DNA of 64,000 nt, from NCBI GenBank assembly GCA_963805945.1, contig CAWDVP010000008.1:7319-71318 (forward strand), read 5' to 3'. The notes beneath the pieces were generated by a model that saw only the letters and a list, made by a program, of their open reading frames with translations, searched no databases and had not been told where the DNA came from. A program made the translations under genes and the position numbers. The DNA is from Vulcanimicrobiota bacterium (GTDB taxonomy: Bacteria > Vulcanimicrobiota > Vulcanimicrobiia > Eremiobacterales > Eremiobacteraceae). Below are positions 7,032-41,963 of this stretch, one piece after another (position 1 is the stretch's first letter; the number at the start of each line of letters is the position of its first letter).

Positions 7032-7099
7032 TGTAGGGGTCGACCTTTTGGTCGACCCGGTCACTGCGAAGCGGACCGACCTAAAGGTCGGTCCCTACA
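7032..7099. repeat. REPIN-like inverted doublet of two 27-nt hairpins
   Basis: TGTAGGGGTCGACC-TTTT-GGTCGACCC (7032-7058), 14-nt spacer, GGACCGACC-TAAA-GGTCGGTCCCTACA (7073-7099). TGTAG/CTACA ends face outward. Confidence 0.85.
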
Positions 7100-18595: not shown

Positions 18596-20053
18596 CTAGA
18601 TCTTCTGCAGCTCTCGCACTCGGCCGGTGAGCTCTTCATGGATGCCCGCGGGATAGCGGCCGGTGAAGCAGCCCATGCAGAACTCCTTGCGCTCGCGCGC
18701 GGTGGACGCGACGAGGCCCTCTTCGCTCAAGTACGCGAGCGAATCGGCGTTGATGGTCGTCCGGATCTCGGGCACCGAATGGTTGGCCGCGATGAGCTCT
18801 TCGTACGTTGCCGTGTCCACGCCCAGGAAGCACGGATGGCGCATCGGCGGACAGGTGACCCGGACGTGCACCTCCGTCGCGCCGGCCTTGCGCAGCATGG
18901 CGACGATCTGCTTCGTGGTGGTGCCGCGCACGATCGAATCGTCGACGAGCACGACCCGCTTGCCCGCGAGATTGGCGTGCAGCGGGTTGAACTTCAGCTT
19001 GACGCCCTGCACGCGCATGCGGTGATCCGGATTGATGAAGGTGCGCCCGATGTAGCGGTTCTTCATCAAGCCTTCGATGTACGGGATGCCGGATTCGTCC
19101 GCGTAGCCGATCGCCGCCGCGGTCGCTGAGTCGGGCACGCCCATGACGACGTCGGCTTCGACCGGGCTCTCCTTGGCGACGTTGCGACCCATCTGATAGC
19201 GCGCGAGATACAATTCGCGCCCCGCGACCTGCGAGTCGGGGCGGGAGAAATAGATGTATTCGAAGATGCAGTTCGCCGGCTTCTCGTCCGTCTTGATCAT
19301 GCGGCTGCGCATGCCGTCCTTGTCGATGGTGATGATCTCGCCCGGCAGGATCTCGCGGACGTACTCCGCGCCGATGGTCGCAAGCGCGCAGGATTCCGAG
19401 GCCAGCGCCCAACCCGAGCCGTACTTGCCCAGGCACAGCGGGCGGATGCCCCATGGATCGCGGAAGCCGAAGAGCTGTTTCTCGGTCGCGAGCACGATCG
19501 AGAACGCGCCGATGCACTGGCGCATCGCCGCCTCGATGCGCTCTTCCATCGAGCCCTCGGGGGCGTTGGCGATGAGCCGCGCCATGATGTCCGAGTCCGA
19601 GTTGCTCGTGGGCACGAGCGTGTCGTGGAGCTGGTCGCGCAGCTCGTCGGTGTTCACCAGATTGCCGTTGTGCGCAAGCGCGAACTGCCCGAGGGCGCTG
19701 TCCGACAGCAGCGGCTGCGCGTTGTAGATGACCGACGAGCCGCTGGTGGAGTAGCGCGTGTGCCCCACCGACAAGTAGCCCGGCAGTTCGGCGAGCGTCT
19801 CTTCGGTGAAGATCTGGGAGATGAGCCCCATGTCTTTATGACAGCGCATCGTGTAGCCGTCGGAGACCGCGATACCGGCGCTCTCCTGACCGCGATGCTG
19901 GAGCGAGTAGAGCGCGAAGAACGTGGACCGGGCGACGTCTTCGCCGGGTGCGAAGATGCCGCACACGCCGCACGCGTCGCGGATCGCGTCGTCGCCGCTC
20001 TTGGCCTGCCAGCCGTGGTAGGTCGGGGTGGGAGGCGCGTCGCTCATCGTCAC
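18596..20053 (-). CDS. purF: amidophosphoribosyltransferase
   Basis: N-terminal CGVCGIFA (Ntn Cys), PRTase motif VVLVDDSIVRGTT and C-terminal Fe-S Cys ligands. Intact 485 aa. Confidence 0.95.
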   Translation of the reverse strand: MTMSDAPPTPTYHGWQAKSGDDAIRDACGVCGIFAPGEDVARSTFFALYSLQHRGQESAGIAVSDGYTMRCHKDMGLISQIFTEETLAELPGYLSVGHTRYSTSGSSVIYNAQPLLSDSALGQFALAHNGNLVNTDELRDQLHDTLVPTSNSDSDIMARLIANAPEGSMEERIEAAMRQCIGAFSIVLATEKQLFGFRDPWGIRPLCLGKYGSGWALASESCALATIGAEYVREILPGEIITIDKDGMRSRMIKTDEKPANCIFEYIYFSRPDSQVAGRELYLARYQMGRNVAKESPVEADVVMGVPDSATAAAIGYADESGIPYIEGLMKNRYIGRTFINPDHRMRVQGVKLKFNPLHANLAGKRVVLVDDSIVRGTTTKQIVAMLRKAGATEVHVRVTCPPMRHPCFLGVDTATYEELIAANHSVPEIRTTINADSLAYLSEEGLVASTARERKEFCMGCFTGRYPAGIHEELTGRVRELQKI

Positions 20054-20085: not shown

Positions 20086-21378
20086 CTATGCCCCGCGCTC
20101 GTCCCGGACCCGGTCTGCGATGTCGCCTCGATAGCGCAGCCGCGAGCCCTCCGGCACGCGTGCGACATAGGCGGCACAGGCGGCGTATGCGCGGCCCCGC
20201 GCCTCTCCTATCGTGTCGCCGACCGCGGTGATGGTCAAGACCCGGCCGCCGCTTGCTCGCACCGTCTGGCCGTCGAGCGCCGACCCGCCCCAAAAGGCCG
20301 CCACGTGGGGCTCCGCGGAGGGCAGCGGCAGCCGGTCCATCGGGTCCGAGTGTTCCGGATAGCGCTCGGAGGTCAGCACGACGCCGACGCAGGCCGACTT
20401 CGAGAATGTGGGCGCGGGCGCTTTGCCGTCCGCCAGTGCGATCGAATGGAGCAGCTCGAAGAGGTCGGATTCGAGCCGCGGCAGGACGACCTGGGTCTCC
20501 GGATCGCCGAAGCGGGCGTTGAACTCGAGCACGAATGGCCCGCGCTTGGTGATCATCAGGCCTGCGTACAGACAACCCCGGTAGTCGATGCCGTCGGCCG
20601 CCAGGCCGGCGCGCACCGGCTCGATGATGTGCTTGGCGACGCGATTCATGAGGTCGCCGCCGGCGACGTCCGGCGCGGGCGAGTACGCCCCCATGCCGCC
20701 GGTGTTGGCGCCCTCGTCGCCGTCGCGGGCGCGCTTGTAATCGCACGCCGGCGCGAGGACGTACGCGCGCGCGCCGTCGCACACCGCCATGACGGAGACC
20801 TCTTTGCCTTCGAGGCGCTCCTCGAGGACGAGCGTGGTGCCGCCGCCTGGCAGCGAGCGTTCGCCATACCAGCGCTCGATGGTCGGTTTGGCTTCTTCCG
20901 CTGAATCAAAGACGACGACGCCCTTGCCGGCGGCAAGGCCGTCGGCTTTGACGACGATGCCGCCTTGCCAGTTGCGCAGGAAGCGTTCGGCCTGTTTGCG
21001 GTCGTGCGCGACCTTGAACGCAGCGGTGGGGATGCCCCAGCGCAGCATGCACTGCTTGGCGAACGCCTTGCTCGACTCGAGCCGCGCGCCGCTGCGCCCC
21101 GGCCCGAACGTCGCGATCCCCGCTTGGCGCAGCGTGTCGGCGACGCCCGCCGCCAATGCCGCTTCCGGCCCGATCACCGCGAGGTCGACCGCTTCTTCTA
21201 CGGCACGGTTGGTGATGGCGTGCGTGTCCGTAGCGGAGATGTCGGACCAATTCGTGCCGAGCAGCGCCGTGCCCGCATTGCCCGGCGCGGCGACGATCGC
21301 TTCGACCTGCGGCGACTGCGCCAATTTCCATGCGAGCGCGTGTTCACGCGCTCCTGATCCGACGACGAGTACCTTCAC
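20086..21378 (-). CDS. purD: phosphoribosylamine--glycine ligase
   Basis: MKVLVVGSGAREHALAWKL and an ATP-grasp core. Intact 430 aa. Confidence 0.95.
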   Translation of the reverse strand: MKVLVVGSGAREHALAWKLAQSPQVEAIVAAPGNAGTALLGTNWSDISATDTHAITNRAVEEAVDLAVIGPEAALAAGVADTLRQAGIATFGPGRSGARLESSKAFAKQCMLRWGIPTAAFKVAHDRKQAERFLRNWQGGIVVKADGLAAGKGVVVFDSAEEAKPTIERWYGERSLPGGGTTLVLEERLEGKEVSVMAVCDGARAYVLAPACDYKRARDGDEGANTGGMGAYSPAPDVAGGDLMNRVAKHIIEPVRAGLAADGIDYRGCLYAGLMITKRGPFVLEFNARFGDPETQVVLPRLESDLFELLHSIALADGKAPAPTFSKSACVGVVLTSERYPEHSDPMDRLPLPSAEPHVAAFWGGSALDGQTVRASGGRVLTITAVGDTIGEARGRAYAACAAYVARVPEGSRLRYRGDIADRVRDERGA

Positions 21379-21416: not shown

Positions 21417-21992
21417 GTGAGCCTCGAGCTTTGGAGCACCATCGCTTCCGTTGGCACGTTCGTCGTGATCACCGCGACGGCGATCGCCGCCGTCATCCAA
21501 CTTATCCACATCCGGAGCGGCAACCAGATCGCGATCCTCAATGACTTTCGCATCGCGACGGAAGATCCAGAATTCCGCGCAGCGATGGAGTTCATCTACA
21601 CGCTGCCGTCCAAGGTCGGCGATCGCGAGTTCCGCGCCTTGCTCGAACGCGACACGTTGCCGGTGGAGTTCTACCCGATTCATCGAGTGGGGCGTCTCTA
21701 CGAGCTGTTCGGATTCTACGTCAATCGCGGCATACTTGATGCCGACATGGTCTGCGACCTGTGGGCACCCGTCATCCAAGGGGTGTGGGACAACATGGCG
21801 GACACCATCGTCGTGATGCGGCGTTCGCGCGGGCCCGAACTCTTGGAGAACTTCGAATACCTCGCCCTCTTGAGCGCGCGCTATCTCAAACGCAACCAGA
21901 GCGTCTACCCGAAGAACTTGCCCCGCATCGCGCACGCCGATAAATGGGCGGCGCAGGATGCGGCCACGCCGTCTACTCCCACTCGATCGTAG
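21417..21992 (+). CDS. hypothetical membrane-anchored protein (resembles DUF4760 family)
   Basis: 191-aa ORF with an N-terminal TM helix ([24 protein letters not shown]) followed by a helical domain. Its 3' end overlaps the guaA 3' end by 20 nt. Confidence 0.55.
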
Positions 21993-23511
21993 CGGGCGGC
22001 TTGCTCGTGATGTCGTAGGCGATCCGATTGACGCCCGACACCTCGTTGACGATGCGCGTCGCGATGCGCTGCAGCGTCTCCGGCGACAGCCGCGCCCAGT
22101 CCGCCGTCATGCCGTCGTCGCTCGTCACCGCCCTGATGGCGACCATATTGGAATACGTCCGGCCGTCGCCCATGACGCCGACGCTTTGCAGCGGCGTCAG
22201 CACCGCGAAGTACTGCCATGGGATCTCTTCTTCTTTTTCGATCTCCTCGCGCGCGATCGCATCGGCGCGGCGCAGGACGTCGAGGCGTTCGCGCGTGACC
22301 GCGCCGAGGATGCGCACGGCGAGCCCGGGTCCCGGGAAGGGTTGACGATTCACGATATGTTCGGGCAGCCCGAGCTCCCGCCCGAGCGACCGCACTTCAT
22401 CTTTGAACAGCAGGCGCAGCGGCTCGATGAGCTTGAGGTGCATGCGCTCCGGCAGACCGCCGACGTTGTGATGCGTCTTGATCTTGTGCCCGGCCTTGCT
22501 GTCGGACGTCTTGCTCTCGATGACGTCGGGGTAGAGCGTGCCCTGCACGAGGAAATCGACGCCGGCGAGCTTGGCCGCCTGCCCTTCGAAGACCGCGATG
22601 AACTCGCGGCCGATGATCTTGCGCTTCTCCTCCGGGTCCGAAACGCCCGCCAGCGCGGTGAGGAACTGGTCGGTGGCGTCGATATGGATGAGATTGAGGT
22701 GCAGCTGATCGCGGAACGCCTCGACGACCTGTTTGGCCTCGTCCTGGCGCAACAGGCCGTGGTCGACGAAGATGCAGGTGAGCCGATTGCCGATGGCGCG
22801 CGCCACGAGCGTCGCGGCGACCGCGCTGTCGACGCCGCCGGAGAGGCCGCAGACCGCATTGGACTCGCCGACCTGCGCGCGGATCTGCTCGACGCTGCGC
22901 TCGATGAAGGACGACATCTCCCAGCGCTGCGACAGTCCGGCGACCGAGCGTAGGAAGTTACGGATGACGCGGCGCCCGGCATCGGTGTGCTTCACCTCCG
23001 GGTGGAACTGCACGCCGTACCAGTTCTTGCCCGGATCGCCGACCGCGGCTTGCGCGCAGGCGCCGGTGTGGGCGAGCGTCATGAAGCCCTCGGGCAGCGC
23101 GGTGACCGTGTCGCCATGGCTCATCCACGCCTGCGAGTGGGTCGGCACTTCTTCGAACAGCGGCGAGTGGACCGCGTCGACCACCAGCTCCGTCCTGCCG
23201 AACTCGCGGATCTCGCCGGGCACGACCGTGCCGCCGAGCGCGCGCATCATGTCCTGCATACCGTAGCAGATGCCGAGAATGGGCTTGTCAGATTTCAGCA
23301 GCTCTTCGGGCACGTGCGGCGCGCCGGGCGCGACCGCGCTCTCGGGCCCGCCCGTGAGGATGAACGCTGCCGGCTCGCGCGCCTCGATCTCCGACCAGGG
23401 CGCATCATAGGGCATCACCTCAGAATACACGCCCTCTTCGCGCACGCGCCGCGCGATGAGCTGCGCGTACTGCGCCCCAAAATCGAGGATGACGACCGTT
23501 TCCTGCCCCAT
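21973..23511 (-). CDS. guaA: GMP synthase (glutamine-hydrolysing)
   Basis: GATase (ILGICYGMQ) plus ATP-PPase ([10 protein letters not shown]) plus dimerisation domain ending TIEWE. Intact 512 aa. Confidence 0.96.
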
Positions 23512-24643
23512 CAGGTGCAGACGCTTCCAAGCGTGCCGGCGTCGCGCGCCATGACGACTTCCTTCGCGATGCGTTCACCGACAGAGATCTCGCGACCCCA
23601 ACGGTAGGCGGAATATGGTGTGTACTTCGTGCCGGGCGAACCCGGGATGCGCAGGCTGACGTCGTACACCACGAACGACTTCGGCGGCCCCGCTGCGATG
23701 ACGCACTGCAGCGCGAACGGCCCGATGATGCCCGGCGGCCGCGCGGCGCGCGCCGCCGCGACGAAACGCTCGCCCATGTCGAAGGCCTGCTCGAGCATGG
23801 ATTCGGTGAGCGTCGCCGCGATGTGGCCCGCCTCTTCCATCGAGGGCATGAACGCGCCGCCGAGCGACGCCTGCTCGATCGCCAGCAGATTCCTGGCCCC
23901 GTCGACGTCGGTCTGACGCCGCGTGTCCGTGCCGAGCAGCTCGAGCTCGCCGGACAGCGGCGAATAGAAGAAATTCAGATTGATGCTCGGGCCGAGCACG
24001 TACTCCTCGAGCACCGCGCCCGCGAGGCCTTGCTCGCTGATCACACCCGCGGCGAGGAGCGTCTGGGAACGGCGTTTGTACTGCTCCGGCGAAGCGGCGA
24101 CGAAGAAGGCGCGCTCGAATGTCACCTTGGCGTGCGGCGCCTTGATCAGCGTCAGGCCCGCGATCTCGTCGGGCGAGCGGAGCCGCCGCGGAAAACGGAT
24201 GCCGGCCGCTTCAAGCAGCTTGTACTGGTTGTCGGGCTCGTCGCGCTCCTCCGCGCGCAGCAGGCGGCGCGAGCCGAAGAACGGCACGCGCATGCCGCGT
24301 TCGATCTCGTCGTAGCTGTGGCGCTGGCGTGCGTACACCTCGAATGATCGGTTCGGCACGAAGATCGCGTTGCGCTCGAGCAGCTCTTTCTGGACGTCGG
24401 CGCCAGGATGTCGGCGAAGTGCTCCACCAGCAGCGTCTCGTCGACGCAGCCGGTGCCATCGGGTCGCGCGGCGTAATGTTTGGTATAGGTGCGCTCGCGG
24501 CCGCGCATGCCGACGACGAGATTGCGCAGGCCCTCGCGCTTCGCGCCGAGGCAGACGTCGAGCGCGGAATGGCTGCCGATGCAGCAGAGGGTGAGCGAGG
24601 CGAGGTCGTAACCGGCGAGGACGTCCGCGACGCCCTCACTCAA
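23511..24643 (-). CDS. PurP-like ATP-grasp protein, divergent second paralogue (FAICAR synthetase family); one frame break ~24407
   Basis: N-terminal [21 protein letters not shown] (frame of ORF 24152-24961), then [47 protein letters not shown] (ORF 23511-24359). TTG 24643 overlaps the upstream stop (TTGA). Confidence 0.8.
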
Positions 24644-25761
24644 TTCGCCGGGACTCCCGGTCCTAGGATGCGCGCCGGCTTCGCGGCCAGCTTGCCGTTG
24701 CCGTCGTCGAAGGTGAGCAGGCTGCCCTGATCGAGCACGAGCGACAGGCTGTTGGTGAGCAGCGCGTTCTTGATCTCGCGCGCGATGCGGCGTCCGGTGG
24801 ACATCGGCTCGGTGTAGTTGAGGTACGAATACGGCGAACCGTCGATGAAGAGATTCGTGCCGGCCACGATGCGCGCGGAGATCTCCATGAGGTAGAACTC
24901 CGCCTCCGGGGTCACGATCGTCTCGAGGCAGAACGCGCCGAACAGCCCGCGGTCCGGGCACAGCTCGCGGCTCACGCGCACGACCGCCTCGCCCATGTGG
25001 AAGGCCTCGGCGAGCAGCGACTCGCGCAAGCTGATGGGCTGGTTGCCGATGACGACGTAGCTGGGCTGGATATCCCAGCCCTCCTGGCTCGCCGACGGGA
25101 TGCGTCCGAGCGAGTCGACGTTGCTCTCGTAGCGCCGGTCCATGGACATGATCTCGAGCTTGCCGGTGAGCGGCGAATAGAAATAGTGGATGTACACTGG
25201 CACGCCGATGATGTATTCCTGCATGATGTACTTCTGCTCGACGAGATGCGCGGCGCGCGCGTGGAAATCGTCCGCGTTCTTGACGAAGAGATAGCCCTTG
25301 CCGCCATGGGCGCCGTAGAGCTTCACGATGACCGGCCGGTCGATCTCGCTCGCCTTGGTGAACTGGCGCGGCATCTTCAGGCCTGCCGTGAGCAGCCAGT
25401 CGCGCTGGCGCATTCGATCGGCTTCGAGATCCAGCACGGCCTTGTTGCCGAAGTACGGCGTCGTCATCGCCTTGTGCTGTTCGAGCGAGAGATAGGCGAC
25501 GAACGAGCCGTGCGGCACGAGCACGACTTTGCGCTGGTTGAGCTGATCTTCGACCTTGGGGAAATCGCTGTAACGCGCGATGACCATGACTTCATCGACG
25601 AAGCTGAAGCTCGAGTACAGGCTCTCGTTCTGCGGCGTGGTGACGGCGAGGGTGTGGAAGCCTTCGTCCTTGGCGCCCTTGAGGATCTGCAGCGCGGAGT
25701 GGCTGCCGAGCGTGGCGATGGTGTACAGCGCGGGGAGCTGGGAGGACGATTTGCGTGCCAT
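24640..25761 (-). CDS. purP: 5-formaminoimidazole-4-carboxamide ribonucleotide (FAICAR) synthetase, archaeal PurP type
   Basis: Collinear with archaeal PurP: IATLGSHSALQILKGAKDEGF, VLVPHGSFVAY, HYFYSPLTGKLEIMSMDRRYESNVD, SYVVIGNQPISLRESLL, GRRIAREIK. ATG 25761 is preceded by AAGGAGAA. Confidence 0.88.
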   Translation of the reverse strand: MARKSSSQLPALYTIATLGSHSALQILKGAKDEGFHTLAVTTPQNESLYSSFSFVDEVMVIARYSDFPKVEDQLNQRKVVLVPHGSFVAYLSLEQHKAMTTPYFGNKAVLDLEADRMRQRDWLLTAGLKMPRQFTKASEIDRPVIVKLYGAHGGKGYLFVKNADDFHARAAHLVEQKYIMQEYIIGVPVYIHYFYSPLTGKLEIMSMDRRYESNVDSLGRIPSASQEGWDIQPSYVVIGNQPISLRESLLAEAFHMGEAVVRVSRELCPDRGLFGAFCLETIVTPEAEFYLMEISARIVAGTNLFIDGSPYSYLNYTEPMSTGRRIAREIKNALLTNSLSLVLDQGSLLTFDDGNGKLAAKPARILGPGVPAN

Positions 25762-25801: not shown

Positions 25802-26305
25802 TCACGCCTCCACTGCGACGCGCGCCGGCATCTCCCGGACCGCGAACGTCTGCGAGTGCGGGTTGGCGAGCAGTTCACGACACGCCCATTCGAGGCGCTC
25901 GCGCGGCGCCGGTCCGCCGCTCTCGTACAGCCGCCACGCGACGGCGCGCGACAGCGAGCGCAGCTGCGCCATGCCGAACGGCCCCTGCAGCAGCGAGAGC
26001 AGGCCCGTCGTGTCGTCGTCGCGATCCTCCACGACCGCTTCGAACCCGGTATCGTCATCCGATCGCCGCGCCGCTCCGGTCGTCGAGAGCGAAAGCCGGT
26101 GCTTGTTCGGGTTGAACAGCACTTCGGCGTGCGCGATGCCGCGGGCAAGCGCTTCTGGACTGTCCTCCTCGGCGTTCAAGCGCAGGATCTCCGAGCGCTC
26201 CACCCGCGCGAGCGCATCGTAGCCAAGCTGCCGCAGCGCGACGAGCACCGTGTACGCGGTGTTGTCCGGCATGCGCAGGTCGATCGCGACTTCGACGTCG
26301 CTCAT
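25802..26305 (-). CDS. purS: tandem-duplicated PurS-like protein (two PurS modules in one 167-aa chain)
   Basis: Module 1 is VEVAIDLRMPDNTAYTVLVALRQLGYDALARVERSEILRL..EVLFNPNKH. Module 2 is FEAVVEDRDDDTT..AVAWRLY..CRELLANPHSQ. ATG 26305 overlaps the upstream stop (ATGA). Confidence 0.7.
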   Translation of the reverse strand: MSDVEVAIDLRMPDNTAYTVLVALRQLGYDALARVERSEILRLNAEEDSPEALARGIAHAEVLFNPNKHRLSLSTTGAARRSDDDTGFEAVVEDRDDDTTGLLSLLQGPFGMAQLRSLSRAVAWRLYESGGPAPRERLEWACRELLANPHSQTFAVREMPARVAVEA

Positions 26306-26875
26306 GCCGGTGTCGGCCTCGGCGGCGGGCCGGCGCGGCGCACCAGGGTCACGATGAGCACCACCATGCCGGCGCCGAGGCAGGCGAACGAGACGGCGAG
26401 CCATTTCAGCAACGCGGCCGCGAGGTCCGGCGCGACCGGCGGCGCGATCGCCAGCGCGATGCGCGCTCCCTTGCCGCCGGGATAGCCGCACGTCATGACG
26501 TACGTGCCGACCTGCGGCGCGAGGAACTGCTCGATCGCCTTGCCGGACCTTCCGCCGAAATCGTATTCCGCGTCGAGCGCCGGGGGTTCGAGCGCGAGCG
26601 CGCTGCCGCTCTGCTTCGACGTCACCGCGCACTTGATGTCGGTGGTCGCCGCGGTCGCGAAGGGCTCGCCGTCGACGGTGCTCTTGCGCTCGTAGTACAC
26701 CACGTACTGCCCCGGCGTGCGGACGTGAAGATCCGATCGTGCCGGGCGCGATAAAGCGCACGAAGTCCGATTGCAAGGCCGACGCGTCGCGCAGCGCGCC
26801 GTTGACGCTCGCGACCAGACCGCCGATGATGATGAGCGCGCCGAGCGCGTACCAGAGGCCGCTCGGCTTACGCAT
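26302..26875 (-). CDS. hypothetical two-TM membrane protein embedded in the pur operon; one frame break ~26735
   Basis: MRKPSGLWYALGALIIIGGLVASV..FIAPG (frame of ORF 25802-27556) continues as DLHVRTPGQYVVYYERKS..TYVMTCGYPGG..LLKWLAVSFACLGAGMVVLIVTLV (ORF 26302-27624). ATG 26875 overlaps the purQ end by 8 nt. Confidence 0.6.
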
Positions 26876-27624
26876 GCGGGCGCTCCGCCCGCTCGCGCAA
26901 GAAACGCGCCATGCAGCTGAAGATCGCGTGCCCGGCGACCATCTGGTTCGGGTCGCCCCCGCGCAGCTCGGGCCGCCGGAACAAGACGTTGAGCGCCCAT
27001 GCGGCCCGCTCCGGATGCGGCATGAGCGCCAAGACGTTGCCCCGCTCGTTGCAGATGCCTGCGGCGCGGCGCATCGCCCCGTTGGGCGCGGCACCCGCGT
27101 AGCGAAGGACGATGCGCCCGTGCTCTTCGAGATCGTCGAAGGTCGGTCGCCTCGCCGGTGAAGCGGCCTTCGCCGTGCGCCAGCGCCATGGTCATCGCCG
27201 TGCCGGGCGCGAGACCCGCGGTGAACGCGCAACGCTCCGGCTCCCGATCGGTCACGACCTCGACGAGCTGCGCTTGGAAGTGGTGCGAGGGCAGGTTGTG
27301 CGCGATCGCCACGCGTCCGAGCATGCCGCTCTCCGCGACGATCTGCGCGCCGTTGCACAGCCCGAGCACGAGCTTGCCGCGCTCCGCTTCTTCCTTTATC
27401 ACCGCGACGATCTCGCTCTTGGCCGCGATGGCGCCGGCGCGCACGCGATCCTCGTGCGCGAACCCGCCGGCGATCACGTAGCCGTCGAAGTCGCGCAAGG
27501 CGTTTGGATTCTCCGCCCACCAGAACAGGCGCGCGTCGATGCCGGCGTCGCGGCACGCATCGACCGTCTCGGTCTCGGAGTTCGTGCCGGGGAAGACGAT
27601 GACGGCGACGCCTGGCTCAGGCAT
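26868..27624 (-). CDS. purQ: phosphoribosylformylglycinamidine synthase I (glutaminase subunit); one frame break ~27150
   Basis: VAVIVFPGTNSE, LGLCNGAQ and HGEGRF, then in a second frame NGAMRRAAGICNERGNVLALMPHPER (ORF 26868-27074). Confidence 0.9.
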
Positions 27625-30018
27625 AGAGCTTCTTCAGCGGCTCCGACCACGCGGCCCGCGCGTCGCCGAGCGGTACGTCACAGGCGCCGGCGACGGTGAT
27701 GTTCGGGCCGCCGGTCACACCGAGGCGCAGCGCTCGTGCGGGCACGGCGGCGCAGATCGCTTCGAAGGCGGCGACCTTATCGCGCGCCACTTCGACGACG
27801 AAGCCGGGCTGCTCGCCGAACAGCGCCGCCTGCAGGTCGACATCGCGCGCCCATTCGCGCGGGTCGACGAGACGCGCCCCGAGGGCGCCGTCGGCATCGC
27901 CGCCCAAACACATCTCCGCGACGCAGGCGAGCAGCCCGCCGTCCGAGATGTCGTGCGCTGCGCTGATGACGCCCTCCCGTATCCCGTTGACGACCGCGCA
28001 GAATCGAGGCGTTCGCCTCGGCGTAGTCGAGCGTCGGCAGGTCGGACGCATCGCCGGCAGCGCCGCCGGTCGCCGCTGCCAGCACCGATCCGGCGAGCTT
28101 GTCCGTGCGAGCGCCGAACAGGAAGAGCAGTCGATCCGGCGCGGTGATCTGCATGGTGGCGACGCGGGCGACGTCGTCGACGCGGCCGATGCAGGCGACG
28201 ATCGCCGAGGGTGCGATCGCGCGACCCGCCGACGACTCGTTGTACAGACTCACGTTGCCGCTCACGAACGGCAGCGGCTCGCCCGGCGCGTTGAGCTGGA
28301 GCGATGTCGCCGCTTCCGCGAGTCCCTCGATGCCGTCGACGAGTTGGCGATAGGCGATCGGATCCTCGGGATTGCCGTAGTTCAGGCAATCGGTGAGACC
28401 GATCGGCTGCGCTCCGACTGCCGCGACGTTGCGCGCGGACTCGACGACCGCGTGCGCCGCCGCGAGCTTCGCGCTGAGGGCGCCGTAGCGGGGATTGCCG
28501 TCGACCGAGAGCGCGATGCCTGCGCGCTCGCCGCGCTTGATGATGAAGACGCCGGCGTCCGCATAGCCAGACGGGATGACCGTGGCGCCGCGCACGAACA
28601 TATCGTAATGGGTGATGAGCGGCCGCCGGCTGCACACGTCCAGATGGGAGAGAACCGCCAGCAACGCTCGACTGAAGTCGACCGCTCCATTTCCACGGCG
28701 TATGGAGCGGTCGGATTTATCCGACCGGAGCTCTATCGGCGGCGCCGCTTTCCGCTCCGCCACGATCGGGCCTGCGAGCACGTCGATCGGCAGGTCGATC
28801 AACTTTTCGCCGGCGGCGCGCACGACGTAGCGTTTCGCCTCCGTCACCGTGCCGATGACCGCGGCGCGCGCGTCGGCGGCGATCTCCGGCAGCGTGAAGT
28901 GCTGGTTGTAGATCTGGAGCAGCCGTCGGCGTGAACGATGGCGGCACCGCCCACAGCATGCGCTCTTGCGTCTCCGCGCAGGCGATGACGAAGGGCGGCA
29001 GCCCGCTCGCCGCCTGCGGCACTTTGTCGATGTCGATCGCGGCCCCGAATCCGCCGGCGTTGCTCAGCTCACACGAGCTGCCCATGATGCCGCCGGCGCC
29101 GAGGTCCTTGAAACCGACCTGCAGCCCGAGCCGCTCGATCTCCGCGAACACCGCGTATGACGCGCGCATGATAACGCTCTTGAGGAACGGATCGGGGACC
29201 TGGACCGCGCTCTTGTTGGCCTGCGCTTCCGCCGCGTCGAGCACCAGCGAGGCGAACGCGGCGCCGCCGAAGCCCGATGCGTCGGTCGCCTTGCCGACGA
29301 GCACGAGATCGTATCCGGCGCCGCCGGCCGGCACGCGGCTATGAAGGATGCGGTCGGCGCGCACGATGCCGAGCGCCACCACGTTCACCAGGCAATTGTC
29401 GGTGAACGACTCGTTGAAGTAGACGTCGCCGGCGATGTTCGGCACGCCGACAGCGTTGCCGTACCCGCCGATCCCGTCCACCGCGGCCGCCGCGACGTAT
29501 GCGGCATGCGAGCCGGGCGTCGGCAGGCCGAAGCGCAGCGGATCGGCGCTCGCCACGACCTCGGCGCCCATGCACAACACATCGCGCAGGATGCCGCCGA
29601 CGCCGGTCGCCGCTCCCTCGAACGGCACGACCTGCGATGGATGGTTGTGGCTCTCGTGCGCCACGACGACGCCGTAGTCCACGCCGTCGAGGGTGGCCGC
29701 GCGCAAAATGCCGGCATCTTCGCCGACGCCGACGAGCACGTCGGCGCTGCGCACCGGCAGCGCTTTGAGCAACGGCCGCGAGCTCTTATACGAGCAATGC
29801 TCGCTCCACTGGATCGCGAACGCGTGGGCTTCGGCGCGCGTCGGATCGCGTCCGATGCGCGCTGCGATGGAGCGCAGTTCTTCCGCCGAAAGCGCGAGCG
29901 CCTCGCGGCGTGCGAGGCGCTTGAGGTCCTCGTCCGAGGCGCCGGTGATCGAAAGCGGCTCCGCCGACAAGGAGACTGATGGAGCGGTCGATGCCGTTCG
30001 ACCGTCCTTTTCTCTCAC
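27617..30018 (-). CDS. purL: phosphoribosylformylglycinamidine synthase II; two frame breaks (~28928, ~28000) and two in-frame palindromic-repeat insertions
   Basis: WSEHCSYKSS, HESHNHPS and GGYGNAVGVP (ORF 28717-30018). LLQIYNQHF..ITHYD..SGNVSLYNE (ORF 27777-28847). AAHDISDGGL..tail (ORF 27617-28051). GTG 30018 overlaps the upstream stop (GTGA). An alternative TTG start lies near 29966. Confidence 0.9.
28666..28727. repeat. pair of inverted REP-like hairpins (subfamily B) inside the purL coding sequence
   Basis: GCTCGAC-TGAA-GTCGACCGCTCCA (28666-28689), 13-nt spacer, TGGAGCGGTCGGA-TTTA-TCCGACCG (28703-28727). Translated in frame as ELRSDKSDRSIRRGNGAVDFS. Confidence 0.75.
29980..30007. repeat. 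single REP-like hairpin (subfamily B) at the 5' end of purL
   Basis: TGGAGCGGTCGA-TGCCG-TTCGACCGTCC. If GTG 30018 is the start it encodes DGRTASTAPS. Otherwise it lies in the short gap upstream of TTG ~29966. Confidence 0.75.
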
Positions 30019-31286
30019 GCGCCGGTCTTACCGTTGGGCGGCGCGTTGAGCCGTGCGTCCGATGCGATGACGTTGTTGCGGCTGCGATACTGCGAGACGA
30101 GCACCCTGCCGTAGAGCACGGTGTCGTCGACCGCGAGGATCTTCGCCGCCGCGAGCGCCGCGTTCTCGGGCTCGAGCACGACCGTGCTCGCCACGCCCGA
30201 GGGCAGGTGCAGGCTCGAAAGCACTTCCATGCCGCCCCAATTCGAGCCGATGACCGGACACGCGATGACCGGGTTGGCGGTCGCCGCGTCCACGAACGCG
30301 GAGAGCGCATTGCTCCGCCCGGCGATGGTGATATAGACGACGCGACCCAACGTGCTGTCGGTCTGCTGGATGCGTGTCAGCGCGAACACCGGCGTCTTGT
30401 GCGCCGAGGCGACATGCTTGGTGTTGGGCACGCCGAGCGCGGAGAGCGCCTTGGCGATGCGCTCCGCGTGCGCCGCGTCCGACGCCGAGCCCATCATGAT
30501 CGACACGAAACCACCGCTGCTCTTCTGGAAACGCGCGACCCGCTCGGCGACCTCTTCGTACTTGTCTTTGACGTCGCTCAGATCGCTGTCTTTGGGCGCG
30601 CTCATGTTGCGGTAGACCTGCTTGTCGAGCATGCGCGTCTGGTCGCCCGCCGGCCAGATCCGCCACGAGTCGTTGTCGATGACGTCGGCGAGCAGGATCT
30701 CGCTGCCGCCGCCGGCGCTCGGGATGCGGCCGAACTCCACCTTGAGGTCGACGAGCTGGACGTCTTGCTGCTTCCACGCATGGGCGAGGATCTCGAACAC
30801 GAGCCGGGCTTGGTCGCTCATCTCGACGATTTCCGCCGGCGTGGCGATCTTCTCGGCGACGATCTGCTCGGCGGTGTACTGCGGGTCGTGGCGCGCGTCG
30901 TCTTTGAAGAAATACTCGACGAGGCGCGGCGCGAAGATCGTGCCTTGCGCCACGCCCGGGTTGCGCTTGAGGTAGGAGCCGGCCGCGACGCCGCGCACCA
31001 CCACCTCGATCGGGATCATCTCGCATCGGCGTACGACCATCTCGTTGTCGTCGGCGTCTTCGCCGCCGCTCAAGTAGTGGGTCGGCAAGCCGCATGCGTT
31101 GAGCAGGCGGAAGATCCGCGCCGTGGTGAGCGCCGCGAGGCGGCCCTTGCCGGTGATGGTATTGCGTTTGGCGCCGTCGCCGGCGGTGATGCTGTCCTGC
31201 GACGACACGATCACCGCGTCGGGCTGATCCGGGTGCTGGTAGAGGACCTTCGTCTTGCCCCGGGCGACTTCGACTCCCTTATGCAT
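30015..31286 (-). CDS. purCE: bifunctional SAICAR synthetase / class II AIR carboxylase (PAICS-like PurC-PurE fusion)
   Basis: Collinear with animal PAICS as I recall it: GKTKVLY..SQDSITAGDGAKRN, CEMIPIEVVVRGVAAGSYLKRNPGV, FFKDDARHDPQ, LADVIDNDSWRIWPAGD, then SAHKTP, IAGRSNAL, PVIACP and SSLHLPSG (class II PurE signatures). Intact 423 aa. Confidence 0.9.
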   Translation of the reverse strand: MHKGVEVARGKTKVLYQHPDQPDAVIVSSQDSITAGDGAKRNTITGKGRLAALTTARIFRLLNACGLPTHYLSGGEDADDNEMVVRRCEMIPIEVVVRGVAAGSYLKRNPGVAQGTIFAPRLVEYFFKDDARHDPQYTAEQIVAEKIATPAEIVEMSDQARLVFEILAHAWKQQDVQLVDLKVEFGRIPSAGGGSEILLADVIDNDSWRIWPAGDQTRMLDKQVYRNMSAPKDSDLSDVKDKYEEVAERVARFQKSSGGFVSIMMGSASDAAHAERIAKALSALGVPNTKHVASAHKTPVFALTRIQQTDSTLGRVVYITIAGRSNALSAFVDAATANPVIACPVIGSNWGGMEVLSSLHLPSGVASTVVLEPENAALAAAKILAVDDTVLYGRVLVSQYRSRNNVIASDARLNAPPNGKTGA

Positions 31287-32680
31287 GCGTTGCTTTCTCC
31301 ATCGCGCGGACTTTCGCCGCGAAGAGGTGTGCGCGCTCGGCGGCGAGGCCGACGTGCGCCGCGGGTTCTAGGAGTGCTTTCATCTCCGCCGGTTTGAGGT
31401 GGACGGTGAACGCCTCATCCTTTGACAGCATCTCCGGCAGCGGGTTTTTCTCGTCCTTCTCTATCGCTTCCCAGGCCTTCATCGAGGCTTCCCGCAGCTT
31501 CTCGTGCAGCGCCTGCCGGTCGGCGCCGCGCCGCGCCGCCGCCATGAGCACCGCCTCGGTCGCGGCGAACGGGCCGAAGGTGGCGAGGTTCGCGGCGATC
31601 CGATTCTTGTCGACCCGTAGGCCGCTCATCACCTTGCTCGCCAGCGAGACGATCTCGTCGGCGGCCAAAAAGCTCTCCGCCAGCACGAAGCGGCGGTTCG
31701 CGGAATCGTCGAGCGTGCGTTCGAGCAGGTTGTCCGCGGCGTTCTGCCACGTCACCATCGCGTTGGCGGCGATCGGGCCGCGCGAGCGAGCAGATGCGCT
31801 CGCACATGATGGGATTGCGCTTGAACGGCATCGCCGACGAGCCGACCTGTTTGGCCTCGAAGGGCTCGCCTACTTCGCCGAACGGGCTGCTCGCCAGCAC
31901 GCGCACGTCGAAGGCGAATTTGCTCGCGGTCGCGGCGAGCGCGGCGACGTTGGCCACGACGATATAATCGAGGCGCCGCGAGTACGTCTGCCCTGTGATG
32001 AGCGACGCGGTCAGCCCGAACGCCGACATGACGTCGCGTTCGACCTGGTCGGGCGTGACGTCCGAGCCCTTGAGCAGCGCCGCGTACGACGCAGAAGTGC
32101 CCACCGCGCCGCGCAGCCCTTTGCTCGGCAGCCACGCGGCGAGGCATTTCAGATTCTCGTAGTCGAGATAGAGATCGTGCGCCCACAGGCTCATGCGATA
32201 GCCGAGCGTCGTGGGCTCGGCCGCCTGCAGATGCGTGTACGCCATGCACGGCAGGTCGGCGTATTTCTCGATCTGCCCGGCGAAGACATCGAGCAGCGAG
32301 CGCAGCCCGTCGCTGAGCATCGAAAGCGCCTGCTTCAGGCGCGCGGTCTCGACGTTGTCCTCGACGTCCATGGAGGTCGCGCCGAGGTGCAGCTTGCCGC
32401 CGCCGAGCTTGGCCTGCCTCGCGTAGACGCGCAGTTCGGCCATGAGGTCGTGATGGATCTCTTTTTCGATCTCGTGGGCTGCCGCCAGATCCACCGCGTC
32501 CACGTGGCGGCGCAGGTCCGCCAGCTCTTCCTCGGTGACCAGGCCCGCCTTGGCCTGCGCGGTCGCCAGCTCGAGCCAGAGCCGGCGCCACATGCGGCGT
32601 TTGGTCTCCTCGGAGAACAGTTCGCGCATAGCGGGACGGCCGTATCGCCAGGAAAACGGTGAGGAATACGCTGTTGTCAC
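31279..32680 (-). CDS. purB: adenylosuccinate lyase; one frame break ~31778
   Basis: HLGATSMDVEDN and GSSAMPFKRNPIMCERI (ORF 31415-32680) continue as MVTWQNAADNLLERTLDDS.. (ORF 31279-31758). The 3' end overlaps the purCE start by 8 nt. Confidence 0.92.
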
Positions 32681-32791
32681 TGTGCTGATTTCGTTCGGCG
32701 CGGGACGCTAGCGCCCTTTCCGAGCCTCAAGAGAGAGCGGTAAATCCGCCGCATCGAGGACCCGCATCCAACAGGTGAACAATCGCTATGT

Positions 32792-33819: not shown

Positions 33820-34911
33820 TTAGGGACGGACCGCCGCGCGGATCGGCTCGCGCGCGAGCATCTCCGCGATGGCGACGCCGAACGGCGGCCGCAGGTCGCC
33901 GAACTCGGTCGCGAAGGCGCTGATATAGACGAGCAGGCGTCACGTCGAACGACGGATTGGCGACCGGCGCGTCCGGCGGCGCGATCGGCGTGCCGCGCAC
34001 TTGCAGCACTTCTTTCGCATCGCGCTCCTCGATCGGGATATCGTCGCCTGTCGCCATGCTCGCGTCGAACGTCGAACGCGGCGCCGCGACGTAAAAGGGT
34101 ATGCCGTGCTCGCGTGCGAGCACCGCGAGACCGTAGCTGCCGATCTTGTTCGCGGTGTCGCCGTTGGCGGCGATGCGGTCGGCGCCCACGATGACGGCTC
34201 CGATCTCGCCGCGGCGCATGAAGTAGGCCGCCATGCGCGTCGGTGATGAGCGTGAACGGGATGCCGTCGCCGAGCAGCTCGTACGTGGTGAGCCGCGCGC
34301 CCTGCAGCTGCGGGCGCGTCTCGCCCACGTACACCGCGCGCAGCTTGCCCGCGCGCCAAGCGGAGCGGATGACGCCGAGCGCCGTGCCGTAACCGCCGGT
34401 GGCGAAGTCGCCGGTATTGCAATGGGTGAGCACTTGCACGCCGTCGGGCAGCAGCGCCTCGCCGGCGGCGCCGATGCGGCGGCATGCCTCGATATCGTCA
34501 GCGTGCAGCGCCGCGGCCGCGACCTGCAGCTGTGCGGCGACGGTCTTGGCCGACGCACCGCCGTTGATGTTGCGCTTGGCCTCGTTGAGCAATTCGTTGA
34601 CCGCCCAAGGCAGGTTGACCGCGGTCGGCCGCGCCGACGCGAGCGTCTGCGCCGCGTCGGAGAGCATGGCGAGGAAATGGTCCGGGCTATCGGCTTTTTG
34701 CGCCGCGTCGAGCGCCGCGATCGCCAGGCCGTATGCCGCCTGCGATGCCGATGGCCGGCGCGCCGCGCACGCGCATCTCGCGGATCGCGTTGACGACCGC
34801 CGCCGGCGAGTCGAGCGACAGCACCTCGACCGCGTCGGGCAGTTTGGTCTGATCGATGAGGCGCAGGATTGCCGGCTCGTAGGCGATGTGCGGCGGGCGC
34901 TGCGGGGTCAT
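33820..34911 (-). CDS. mtnA: S-methyl-5-thioribose-1-phosphate isomerase (eIF-2B alpha/beta/delta family); three frame breaks (~34738, ~34240, ~33925)
   Basis: [20 protein letters not shown]|[46 protein letters not shown] and [10 protein letters not shown]|[10 protein letters not shown], ending TAA 33820-33822. The pieces lie in four ORF-track frames. ATG 34911 overlaps the upstream stop (ATGA). Confidence 0.85.
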
Positions 34912-36220
34912 GCGCGCGCGAACTCCTGGTCGGCGACGCTGAGCGCCTCGCCGATGATGCGCGCCGCCTCGTCCGCCTGCGCGATGGTGACGACGAGCGG
35001 CGGTTGGATCCGCAGCGTGCTCGCATACAGCCCGCCGCGCCCGATGAGCAGGCCTTTGTCTTTGCACAGGTTGAGGACGCGCTCTGCCGCTGCCCCGGCC
35101 GGCTCTTTGGTGGCGCGATTGATGACGAGTTCCACGCCGATCATGAGCCCGCGCCCGCGCACCTCGCCGACGATCGGATGACGCGCGGCAAGCGCGCGCA
35201 GCGACGCCATGAGGTGCGCGCCGACCTTGCCGGCGTTGGCCGTCAGGTTCTCTTCTTCTACCACCTCGAGCGCGGCGACCGCGGCGCGCGAGGACAGCGG
35301 ATTGCCGCCGAACGTGTTGATATGCGGTCCTTGATATGCGTCGGCGATCTCCCGGCGCGCGATCACCACCGAGATCGGCAGTCCGTTGCCCAGGCCCTTC
35401 GCCGAGGTGATGATGTCCGGCGTGACGCCCCAATCGGTGATCCCGAACATGTTCGAGCCGAGCCGGCCCCATGCCGTCTGCACTTCGTCGGCGATGAAGA
35501 GGATGCCGTGGCGGTCGAGGATCTCCTTGACCTTCGGGTAGTACTCGGGCGGCGGCGTGATGATGCCGCCGACGCCTTGGATCGTCTCGGCGAAGTAACC
35601 GGCGACGTGGCCAGACGTCTCGGTCTTGATGATGTTCTCGATGGCGTCCGCGCACGCGATCTCGCACGATGGATAGGTGAGGTTGAGCGGGCAGCGATAG
35701 CAGTACGCGTTGGGCGCGAACACGATCTTGCTCGGCTCGCCGCCGAAGTTGCGCCACGCCGCTAAGCCGGTGATGCCCACCGTCCACGCGGAGCGGCCGT
35801 GGTAGGCGTGGGCGAGCGCGATGAACTCCGAATGTTTGGTGAAGTGGCGGGCCAGCACGCGCCGCCAGTTCATTCGCCTCGGTGCCGGAGTTGCCGATGA
35901 AGACCTTGTCCAGGCCGGGCGGCGAGATCTCGGAGAGCTTCTCCGCCAGATCGAGCATCGGCTCGTTCAAGTACAAGCGTCGAGGTGTGGACGATCTTGT
36001 CCACCTGATCGTGGACGGCGGCCTTCACCTTCGGGTGGTTGTGGCCGGCGACGAGCACCGCGATGCCGGCGAAGAAGTCGAGATAGCGGCGGCCTTCGTC
36101 GTCGGTGACATACGCGCCGTCACCCGAGACCAACGTCAGCGGCTCCGGATAGTAGGTCTTGGCGCAGTCCATGAGATACGCGGCCTTGCGTGCTGCGTTG
36201 CGGTTCGCTACTTTCGCCAT
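34908..36220 (-). CDS. class-III pyridoxal-phosphate aminotransferase; two frame breaks (~35980, ~35875)
   Basis: [18 protein letters not shown] (ORF 35870-36253), [22 protein letters not shown] (frame of ORF 34687-35976) and [31 protein letters not shown] (ORF 34908-35873). Confidence 0.85.
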
Positions 36221-40754: not shown

Positions 40755-41963
40755 CTACTGGCCCGTCTTCTCGAAGAGGTGGCCGAGCTTCTCTTTCTTC
40801 ACGCGCAGATAGTCGGCGTTGTACTCGTCGCCGTCCACGATGAGCGGCACTCTGCCGGTCATCTTCAACCCGTAGCCCTCGAGCCCGACGATCTTGCGCG
40901 GATTGTTGGTGATGATCTTCATCTCGCGCACGCCCAGGTCGTGGAGGATCTGCGAACCGGTGCCGTACTCGCGATTGTCGACGGGCAAGCCGAGCCGCTG
41001 ATTGGCCTCGACCGTGTCGGCGCCTTCGTCCTGCAGCTCGTAGGCGCGCAATTTGTTGGCGAGCCCGATGCCGCGCCCTTCTTGATGCAGGTAGAGGAAC
41101 ACGCCGCGCCCGTTGCGCGCGATGATGTGCAGCGCGGCGTCGCGCTGCGCGGCGCAGTCGCAGCGCTTGCTGCCGAGCGCGTCGCCGGTGAGGCATTCGG
41201 AGTGCACGCGCACGGGAACGTCGCGGCCGTCGCCGATCTCGCCCATGACGAGCGCCACGTGGCACGCGTGGTCGACGAGCGACTCGTAGCCGTAGCCGGT
41301 GAAATCGCCGAAGCGCGTCGGCATCTTGAAGGTGGCGATGCGCTTCACGAGCTTCTCGTGGCGCATGCGATAGGCGATGAGGTCGGTGACGGTGATGAGC
41401 TTCATGCCGTGCTCCGCGGCGAACAGCTCGAGCCGCGGGCGGCGCATCATCTTGCCGTCGTCGTCGAGGATCTCGCAGATGACGCCGGCCGGATACAGGC
41501 CCGCGAGCTGAGCGAGATCGACGCCCGCTTCGGTCTGTCCGGCGCGCACGAGCACGCCGCCTTCGCGCGCGCGCAGCGGGAACGTGTGCCCGGGGCAGAC
41601 GAAGTCGCTCGGCTTCGAGCGCGGATCGAGCAGCGCGGCGATGGTCGACGCGCGATCGTGCGCCGAGATGCCGGTGGTCGTCCGGCCTTTAGCCTCGACC
41701 GACACGGTGAACGCCGTCTCGAGCGGCGAGGTGTTCTCGCGCACCATCATCGGGATGTGCAGCTCGTCGAGCCGGCGTCCGATGATCGGCACGCAGATCA
41801 GCCCGCGACCGTGCTTCGTCATGAAGTTGATCGCCTCGGGCGTCACCATCTGCGCCGCCATGGTGAGGTCGCCTTCGTTCTCGCGATCCTCATCGTCCAT
41901 GACGACGATCATCTTGCCGGCGCGGATGTCGGCGATGGCTTCTTCTATTGTGGCAAGCGGCAT
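40755..41963 (-). CDS. ribBA: bifunctional 3,4-dihydroxy-2-butanone-4-phosphate synthase / GTP cyclohydrolase II
   Basis: DDEDRENEGDL and GHTFPL (RibB half). HSECLTGDALGSKRCDC and EGRGIGL (RibA half). ATG 41963 lies within ORF 40755-42464. Confidence 0.94.
   Translation of the reverse strand: MPLATIEEAIADIRAGKMIVVMDDEDRENEGDLTMAAQMVTPEAINFMTKHGRGLICVPIIGRRLDELHIPMMVRENTSPLETAFTVSVEAKGRTTTGISAHDRASTIAALLDPRSKPSDFVCPGHTFPLRAREGGVLVRAGQTEAGVDLAQLAGLYPAGVICEILDDDGKMMRRPRLELFAAEHGMKLITVTDLIAYRMRHEKLVKRIATFKMPTRFGDFTGYGYESLVDHACHVALVMGEIGDGRDVPVRVHSECLTGDALGSKRCDCAAQRDAALHIIARNGRGVFLYLHQEGRGIGLANKLRAYELQDEGADTVEANQRLGLPVDNREYGTGSQILHDLGVREMKIITNNPRKIVGLEGYGLKMTGRVPLIVDGDEYNADYLRVKKEKLGHLFEKTGQ

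Follow-up and report, generated by a model that had tools for sequence, protein, structure and literature searches.

Our analysis concerns purCE, a fused purine biosynthesis gene in a stretch of 64,000 nucleotides (hereafter the window) of contig CAWDVP010000008.1 from a soil bacterium of the family Eremiobacteraceae in the candidate phylum Eremiobacterota (Vulcanimicrobiota; GenBank assembly GCA_963805945.1). The gene is an open reading frame (ORF) of 423 aa with an ATG start at 30015..31286, exactly where a first-pass annotation of the DNA had placed it; that annotation gave no strand, and the minus strand is added here. Its product joins a SAICAR (phosphoribosylaminoimidazole-succinocarboxamide) synthetase to a predicted class II PurE in the architecture of PAICS, and we consider it very likely that purCE encodes a functional enzyme with two activities in the de novo synthesis of purines. 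The SAICAR synthetase (PurC) half comprises residues 1-255 (30522..31286, minus strand; Pfam PF01259) and is of the short, PAICS-type subfamily; the PurE half, a putative carboxylase of 5-aminoimidazole ribonucleotide (AIR), comprises residues 256-423 and, with the stop codon, occupies 30015..30521 of the same strand (Pfam PF00731).

We propose that the class II PurE half adds CO2 directly to AIR and so forms CAIR (4-carboxy-5-aminoimidazole ribonucleotide), a reaction that would need neither ATP nor the N5-carboxyaminoimidazole ribonucleotide (N5-CAIR) intermediate, so that PurK would not be required. The SAICAR synthetase half would then ligate aspartate to CAIR, using ATP and Mg2+, and the resulting SAICAR would be converted to 5-aminoimidazole-4-carboxamide ribonucleotide (AICAR) by PurB, the product of the adjoining upstream gene. 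We infer that the fused protein assembles as an octamer.

The two halves of the fused protein

The translation of purCE contains the motifs GKTKVLY, DSITAG, CEMIPIEVVVRGVAAGSYLKRNPGV, FFKDDARHDPQ and LADVIDNDSWRIWPAGD, together with SAHKTP, IAGRSNAL, PVIACP and SSLHLPSG, and every string quoted in the first-pass annotation is present in it. Pfam assigns SAICAR_synt (PF01259) to residues 7-248 (E 2.4e-62) and AIRC (PF00731) to residues 261-397 (E 6.7e-32). When the full-length protein was compared by phmmer with the sequences of the Protein Data Bank (PDB), the two best matches among all solved structures were human PAICS (2h31; E 3.1e-90, query residues 4-398) and Bombyx PAICS (4ja0; E 1.1e-89, query residues 7-413), each in a single collinear alignment, and by this measure the likeness to PAICS is far beyond chance. 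Identity to the human enzyme is 43% overall, 45% over the PurC half and 38% over the PurE half. The collinearity with vertebrate PAICS that had been claimed for this ORF is thus borne out, both by single alignments with E-values of about 1e-90 and by a TM score of 0.89 between its predicted fold and the PAICS structure 6YB8.

The residues expected to carry out the two reactions were compared using the active-site lists of human PAICS (PMC9376930). In the AIR carboxylase site 15 of the 18 human residues are identical in purCE, among them S294, H296, K297, D270, R324, S325 and N326. At the other three positions the substitution is conservative (T to A, V to I, G to A), and the PurE of Treponema denticola (TdPurE) shares the change from G to A. 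The SAICAR synthetase site, for which human residues G16-K19, T40-N43, E97, K131, D133, D137, K191, E193, D207, D212-R215, K228 and R232 were checked, is identical at 22 of 24 positions, the differences being N43 to D, where Bombyx also has D, and M190 to L. A monomer model of purCE built with AlphaFold2 (AF2), whose training set includes PAICS structures, has a mean predicted local distance difference test (pLDDT) score of 81.9 and a predicted TM score (pTM) of 0.83. The top match of this model in Foldseek is human PAICS (6yb8_A; TM 0.89/0.90, root-mean-square deviation 2.6 Å, 421 columns), followed by Bombyx 4ja0, and structures of stand-alone PurC or PurE each span only half of it.

By its active-site loops, its best solved match and its position in a tree, the PurE half belongs to class II, whose enzymes are AIR carboxylases (EC 4.1.1.21), with the classes defined from published work (PMC10484210, PMC9376930, PMC3261824) and by direct comparison with the solved TdPurE sequence. 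The 40s loop reads SAHK (S294-A-H296-K297; 30396..30407, minus strand) and aligns to S301, H303 and K304 of human PAICS, and the 70s loop reads AGRSNAL (30303..30323, minus strand); the corresponding loops of E. coli PurE are SAHR and AGGAAHLPG. Where a class I PurE is compared with the human class II enzyme, the change from Arg to Lys is singled out as the only distinct difference in the active site (PMC10484210), and the His of SAHK is universally conserved and catalytic (PMC9376930). The string AGRSNAL is identical in TdPurE and in 118 of the 120 closest relatives of TdPurE, which carry SAHK as well. In phmmer searches with the PurE half alone the best solved match was TdPurE, an experimentally characterized class II AIR carboxylase (3rg8; E 9.4e-31, 110 bits), with animal PAICS next, scoring about 88-90 bits; among the class I enzymes listed, the highest-scoring PurE was that of Coxiella burnetii (3trh, with a SAHR loop), with E 1.7e-19 and 74 bits, and E. 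coli PurE (1qcz) gave E 1.1e-11 and 48 bits.

Neighbor-joining trees with Kimura distances and 100 bootstraps were built, one for each half. In the PurE-half tree, which had been set beforehand as a test of the class II signatures recognized in the first-pass annotation, TdPurE, animal PAICS, fusions from the candidate phyla radiation (CPR) and purCE form a class II clade with 96% bootstrap, and class I, sampled by the few sequences of E. coli and Coxiella, lies outside it; tree, loops and best match all agree with those signatures. We also weighed, and regard as very improbable, the reading in which this half acts as an N5-CAIR mutase of class I, in partnership with a PurK encoded elsewhere. 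The Pfam and NCBIfam PurE models do match the protein and the NCBI labels of some relatives are generic, but Lys rather than Arg follows the His, the 70s loop is AGRSNAL rather than AGGAAHLPG, the NCBIfam class I model TIGR01162 gives 116.5 bits against a cut-off of 149.6 bits, the grouping with class II has the bootstrap value given above, and the 110 bits to TdPurE compare with 48-74 bits to class I enzymes. The model for LarB (NF033503), a PurE-like carboxylase/hydrolase of nickel-pincer cofactor synthesis, gives 28 bits against a cut-off of 175. The score of purCE against the NCBIfam purC model TIGR00081 is also below cut-off, and the shortfall against both TIGR01162 and TIGR00081 probably explains the NCBI labels of the relatives, which read no more than 'PurC' or 'AIR carboxylase family protein'.

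The purine operon of the window

A direct AIR carboxylase would make a neighboring purK superfluous, and the absence of purK from this pur cluster, pointed out in the first-pass annotation, is confirmed: tblastn with E. coli PurK found none in the six frames of the 64 kb window (best E = 1.9). With E. coli PurE and the two halves of purCE itself as queries, tblastn likewise found no second purE or purC in the window. Among the window ORFs supported by GC content at third codon positions (GC3), Pfam found no ATP-grasp gene of the PurK family (purK/purT), the ATP-grasp genes present being purD and two PurP-like genes. The comparison was extended to 82 Eremiobacterota loci besides the window, namely 80 species representatives together with L002 and L003, the representatives being the best 80 of at least 581 relatives found in a scan of one genome per GTDB species. 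The flanks searched amount to about 1.35 Mb around the homologous gene across these 82 loci, in stretches of up to 10 kb, and they hold neither a purK (best PurK E = 3.4) nor an additional purE or purC. A search for purK and for separate purE and purC genes, suggested in the first-pass annotation for the genome as a whole, has thus returned none at the local scale of the window and the flanks of relatives. The supplements of the Vulcanimicrobium alpinum genome paper do not mention purK, purE or the KEGG orthologues K01587-K01589.

Two PurP-like genes form part of the cluster. The best solved match of the first (24640..25728, minus strand; Pfam DUF1246 and DUF1297) is Pyrococcus furiosus PurP PF1517 (2r84, E 2.3e-97), and that of the second (23511..24395, minus strand; Pfam DUF1297 and DUF1246), which is truncated at its N-terminus in the window, is Methanocaldococcus jannaschii PurP (2r7k, E 2.2e-53). 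On these matches the two genes belong to the archaeal-type family of formate- and ATP-dependent synthetases of 5-formaminoimidazole-4-carboxamide ribonucleotide (FAICAR), inside a bacterial operon. A search for PurH came up empty both in the window and in about 1.37 Mb of flanking DNA from Eremiobacterota. Of 84 sources searched, 64 have PurP-like genes close to purCE, and in 48 of these there are two copies; paired PurP clusters have been described for archaea (PMC3261824), and the Eremiobacterota pairs mirror them.

All of these genes lie on one strand in the order purB-purCE-purL-purQ-(purS)-purP-purP-guaA-purD-purF. The upstream gene, purB (adenylosuccinate lyase; 31279..32680, minus strand), is recognized by Pfam Lyase_1 and ADSL_C on two ORF pieces; its stop overlaps the ATG of purCE by 8 nt (ATGCATAA), and GGAG lies upstream of that ATG. 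A 1-nt insertion near 31775 splits purB in the window, and the gene is intact at 449 aa in L002. Downstream, the TGA of purCE overlaps by 4 nt (GTGA) the GTG start of purL (formylglycinamidine ribonucleotide (FGAM) synthase II; 27617..30018, minus strand; Pfam FGAR-AT_linker, AIRS and AIRS_C), which is in fragments in the window and intact at 786 aa in L003. The purQ region follows (26302..27624, minus strand), with GATase_5 at residues 4-160 of a 440-aa ORF; relatives have instead a 246-aa purQ followed by a 187-aa ORF and a PurS-like ORF. Beyond the PurP-like genes come guaA (21973-23511), purD (20086-21378) and purF (18596-20053), and 18 kb away purN (10169-10915; Formyl_trans_N) and a truncated purM (11060-11806; AIRS), all on the minus strand and identified with Pfam.

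The same gene order is kept, with the genes intact, in L003, a 2.65 Mb JGI contig, and in L087. The DNA of L002 is 92.6% identical to the window, and its purCE protein (P0001) is 99% identical. Against L002, the ratio of nonsynonymous to synonymous substitution rates (dN/dS) of the PurC half is 0.04 and that of the PurE half 0.011; the ratio ranges from 0.05 to 0.27 across the set of related proteins with a canonical class II site (group A, below). In keeping with the native composition first remarked upon in the first-pass annotation, the GC content of purCE is 0.667 against 0.673 for the window; its GC3 of 0.91 stands at the top of the range of 0.75-0.91 among the 45 called ORFs. The context shows that purCE belongs to the operon, has been inherited vertically and is coupled in translation, and we conclude that the gene is real, native and probably functional.

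Some further features of this region were recorded. Between purQ and the first purP of L003 lies a 187-aa protein without a Pfam match (14369-14932), next to a 166-aa protein (14934-15434) whose last ~35 residues are weakly PurS-like; the corresponding region of the window is merged into the 440-aa ORF. If the 166-aa protein is the PurS of an FGAM synthase complex, it is unusually long. Next to purB in L002, between that gene and the neighbor of an IF-2B-like gene, is a block of 5.7 kb (2860-8565) that holds DUF1326 and PpoB2, the gene of a TetR regulator, two for alpha/beta hydrolases and one small ORF. At ~32722-32736 the window has no such block, which amounts to an insertion or deletion between near relatives beside the pur operon. 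The RibBA protein of the window (DHBP synthase and GTP cyclohydrolase II; 40755-42464, minus strand) has an N-terminal extension of ~170 aa, and that of L087 (3507-4937, 476 aa) has HTH_3/HTH_31 domains in front, a possible regulator-enzyme fusion in a riboflavin cluster. A tRNA scan found no tRNA genes.

Degenerate PurE halves and the case for catalysis

The canonical class II site is kept in 14 of the 82 related loci. The proteins of this group A are 423-433 aa long and 74-99% identical, one copy being cut off by a contig end, and come from named bins that include Eremiobacter antarcticus and Eremiobacteraceae. The window protein and 13 other canonical group A proteins keep SAHK, and they keep AGRSN as well except in L009 (AGRSD). 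The remaining 68 loci form group B (loci L015-L083, proteins P0094-P0121; the match lies at ~10001-11200 in most loci), with proteins of 386-410 aa that are about 50% identical and named bins that include Baltobacteraceae, Elarobacter, Tumulicola, Cybelea, Aquilonibacter and Vulcanimicrobiaceae. In the PurE half of group B the motif GSxSD is replaced, for instance by ADSPE; SAHK no longer has its His (SPATTP, SAARTP), the AGRSN loop is gone as well, and ~25 residues are deleted, including CP...SSLxxPSG. These halves went undetected in tblastn searches with T. denticola or E. coli PurE, and their Pfam AIRC score is 21.7 bits against a threshold of 30 bits; their dN/dS is nevertheless 0.04-0.22.

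A third set, comprising L014 (1891-3132), P0087, P0090 and P0092, has lost only the His (SALKTP, SPSKTP, SAQKTP). These His-less intermediates branch at the base of group B in both trees; their lineage includes L087 (10001-11269), its bins are labelled 'bacterium REEB356' and 'Dormibacteraeota', and its synteny matches that of the window. Taken together, the series looks as though an enzyme domain had been turned, step by step, into one that is kept but no longer catalytic. In human PAICS the conserved octamer at the center is built from the PurE domains (PMC10484210), and by analogy the degenerate half may persist as an oligomerization core.

These relatives bear directly on how the window protein is to be read, since its own PurE half could be catalytically idle or mainly a structural oligomerization core, as appears to hold for most other Eremiobacterota, with CAIR supplied by a separate PurE, with or without PurK, elsewhere in the genome. 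The purifying selection on degenerate halves in 68 of the 82 loci, together with the proteins of the third set that lost nothing but the His, speaks for such a role; because degenerate halves remain under selection, retention of the PurE domain alone is no proof of catalysis in this phylum. Nonetheless, group A keeps SAHK, the window protein matches 15 of the 18 AIR carboxylase residues, its PurE half has a dN/dS of 0.011, and no other purE or purK is present in the window or the flanks. We accordingly judge an idle PurE half to be improbable and prefer the reading of purCE as a functional enzyme at both ends.

Several points weigh against this preferred reading. As the PurE site has been lost in sister lineages, the phylum must have, or have acquired, another route to CAIR; such a route might exist in the window organism too, in which case its PurE half would be redundant, and this is the main reason for our caution about the function of the window protein. 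The absence of purK has been seen locally, in the 64 kb window and the ~1.35 Mb of flanks. In the AF2 model the pLDDT falls below 50 at residues 349-368, which contain the SSLxLPSG loop; given the nature of PurE octamers, this loop would be ordered only in the oligomer. The domain arrangement in the model is not independent evidence, because AF2 was trained on PAICS structures. Finally, many genes in the window are split or truncated, among them purB (~31775), purL (27617-30018), purM (11060-11806), dapA (51752-52423), uvrD (55500-57056), wecG (50767-51189), an aminotransferase gene (34908-35873) and pepA, and several unpaired 1-nt insertions are seen relative to L002. These frameshifted neighbors raise a concern about sequence quality or about pseudogenization of the pathway.

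Since the relatives have the split genes intact, assembly error is the simplest reading of this damage, and likely, though not proven. Homopolymer errors were considered as the source of the indels and set aside; none of the contexts inspected is a homopolymer run, and the gaps cannot be placed unambiguously against a relative that is 92% identical. The damage could in principle extend to the subject of this study, with purCE being a decaying gene in a degrading pathway or an artifact of assembly that joined a separate purC and purE, and the truncated or split state of purB, purL, purM, dapA, uvrD and others and the unpaired 1-nt insertions are what such an account would draw on. It is difficult to reconcile with fused ORFs of 423-433 aa in independent JGI, ENA and NCBI assemblies (more than 80 protein clusters and 13 further loci), or with an ORF that is intact in the window and has a dN/dS of 0.01-0.04, and we give it almost no credence. 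The purCE ORF is unaffected by the neighboring frameshifts, and a 99% identical protein is present on an independent contig.

Distribution, origin and relation to known systems

A large protein search returned 3588 relatives of purCE, and the top ~90 are full-length fusions with 70-99% identity from bins named Candidatus Eremiobacteraeota, Eremiobacteraceae and similar; the automatic JGI name for them is 'phosphoribosylaminoimidazole carboxylase / phosphoribosylaminoimidazole-succinocarboxamide synthase'. The best 80 of the at least 581 relatives from the genome scan all have the Eremiobacterota-type gene, and most of their bins are Eremiobacterota/Vulcanimicrobiota, with some labelled 'bacterium' and a few assigned to other phyla. 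Eight bins (L011, L025, L007, L046, L050, L061, L062 and L079) are labelled Proteobacteria, Acidiferrales/Acidoferrum, Verrucomicrobiia or Janthinobacterium, two of them at 75-76% identity, which suggests mis-binning or mislabelling.

An exhaustive search of 1.84 billion cluster representatives gave 259 matches below 1e-30, of which the top 150 were inspected and 43 have both halves. Named carriers of such fusions include members of the CPR (Woykebacteria/Microgenomates, Minisyncoccia and Uhrbacteria) and animals (sponge, fish, marsupial and horsehair worm). The closest fusion outside the phylum, P0123, is 49% identical and comes from a freshwater bacterium, where it lies in an operon of the order purH-purCE-purM-purS-purQ-purL-guaB-guaA. 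Class II PurE is also common as a stand-alone protein, in Treponema and in metagenome bins of Anaerolineae/Chloroflexota, and the named members among the closest relatives of TdPurE come from these two sources. Class II PurE had been described at the outset as known from animals and a few bacteria such as Treponema denticola; the mention of Treponema holds, but the spread was understated, given the stand-alone enzymes of Anaerolineae/Chloroflexota and the fusions in the CPR and in P0123.

In both half-trees the Eremiobacterota proteins form one clade with 99-100% bootstrap, apart from the animal clade, which argues against a recent transfer of purCE from animals. Deeper nodes have 1-53% support in the neighbor-joining trees of both halves, with stand-alone PurC and PurE sequences interspersed. 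We attach very little weight to the idea that the gene came recently, by horizontal transfer, from an animal or another eukaryote, or that it is eukaryotic contamination of the assembly. The best full-length solved matches are indeed animal PAICS, and the architecture has been called 'common in eukaryotes' (PMC3261824); but identity to human PAICS is only 43%, the GC and GC3 values are those of a native gene, the start codon and the stop codon each overlap a flanking gene (purB and purL), synteny extends across the phylum, the clade lies outside the animals for both halves, and the 70s loop has the bacterial form. The description of purCE as an animal-type PAICS in the first-pass annotation accordingly stands for its architecture and not for its descent, the Eremiobacterota clade being monophyletic and its loop AGRSNAL rather than the animal AGRSNGL.

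In Treponema and Anaerolineae genomes purE overlaps the preceding purC by 4 nt. Such an adjacent pair was considered as a direct precursor of the fusion and rejected, the PurC proteins concerned being of a long type and only 23-25% identical to the PurC half of purCE. The opposite arrangement, with PurE ahead of PurC, is seen in P0171 (441 aa) and P0228 (440 aa). In the tree the PurE halves of both lie beside the class I enzymes of E. coli and Coxiella and not in the class II clade, and JGI names P0228 only 'PurE protein'. These two represent a different and independent fusion of the same two pathway steps.

A broader scenario is that short-type PurC and class II PurE were fused on a single occasion, in bacteria, and that eukaryotic PAICS descends from such a gene. 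The window organism, with its two PurP genes and with no PurH or PurK found nearby, would then have a hybrid pathway that is PAICS-like at steps 6 and 7 and archaeal-like at step 9, and the PurE halves of sister lineages would have become non-catalytic scaffolds. This is speculative, and we think it rather unlikely as a whole. If it were true, lineages such as Eremiobacterota or the CPR would still carry the prokaryotic forerunner of an enzyme that is commonly portrayed as having been invented by eukaryotes. The PurC-PurE fusion has been presented as a eukaryotic or human feature, and the route through PurK and class I PurE as that of most microbes and a possible antibacterial target (PMC3261824, PMC10484210). 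The only mention of a fused PurCE that we found in the literature, where it is termed 'common in eukaryotes', is in PMC3261824; our search found no paper on bacterial PurC-PurE fusions and nothing relevant on purine synthesis in Eremiobacterota.

The findings described here indicate that the PAICS architecture is a stable, selected and operon-embedded feature of a free-living bacterial lineage, and is also present in the CPR. They offer prokaryotic systems in which to study how PAICS assembles and how CAIR may be channelled, as well as material on the origin of the eukaryotic enzyme, and the PurE halves, from intact through His-less to fully degenerate, provide a natural series for the passage from enzyme to pseudo-enzyme domain under selection. 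There is also a practical side: because the annotations of NCBI and JGI disagree, metabolic reconstructions of Eremiobacterota could misscore the step from AIR to CAIR as missing, and the opposite error is possible in group B bins, where the step could be called present despite a dead site. Proteins of the purCE type are already public and correctly named by one pipeline, and they are lineage-wide, hence the novelty is modest. What is seen is the recombination of two well-understood enzymes with no new chemistry, and the finding is less surprising because the fusion extends across the lineage, occurs also in the CPR and unites two well-understood activities. The series of degenerate PurE domains and the pair of archaeal-type PurP genes add somewhat to the value of the locus.

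Comparison with known systems places purCE closest in architecture to animal PAICS (2H31/6YB8; 4JA0), with which it shares the domain order, a short linker, an almost equal length (423 aa against 425 aa) and the class II loops. It differs from the animal enzymes in its 70s loop, which is AGRSNGL in human and silkworm and has the bacterial class II form AGRSNAL in purCE, in lacking an insertion of ~6 residues that animal PAICS has near residue 145, and in belonging to a separate bacterial clade and to an operon with overlapping genes. The PurE half is 40% identical to T. denticola PurE (3RG8), with SAHKT, ITIAGRSNALS, IACP and SSLxxPSG identical; TdPurE, however, is a separate protein of 159 aa. 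A close relative, Treponema sp. OMZ 788, has a PurE with 97% identity to TdPurE, and there purE overlaps by 4 nt a purC that encodes a long-type protein of 316 aa. The long-type PurC proteins of Treponema and Anaerolineaceae are only 23% identical to the PurC half of purCE; the fusion partner of the PurE half is therefore a different PurC subtype.

The other bacterial fusions, those of the CPR and P0123, have the same domain order as purCE and all fall in the class II clade, and both the Woykebacteria protein P0125 and P0123 keep SAHK and AGRSN(A/G)L as purCE does. They are, on the other hand, only 38-49% identical and form distinct clades, and the operon of P0123 has PurH and not PurP. The class I system of PurE and PurK, as encoded by E. 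coli purEK, has a homologous PurE fold and serves the same step from AIR to CAIR, but there an ATP-dependent PurK makes N5-CAIR, which is converted by a mutase (EC 5.4.99.18) with the loops SAHR and AGGAAHLPG. The ADE2 protein of fungi and plants is also a fusion, and it joins PurE to PurK and not to PurC.

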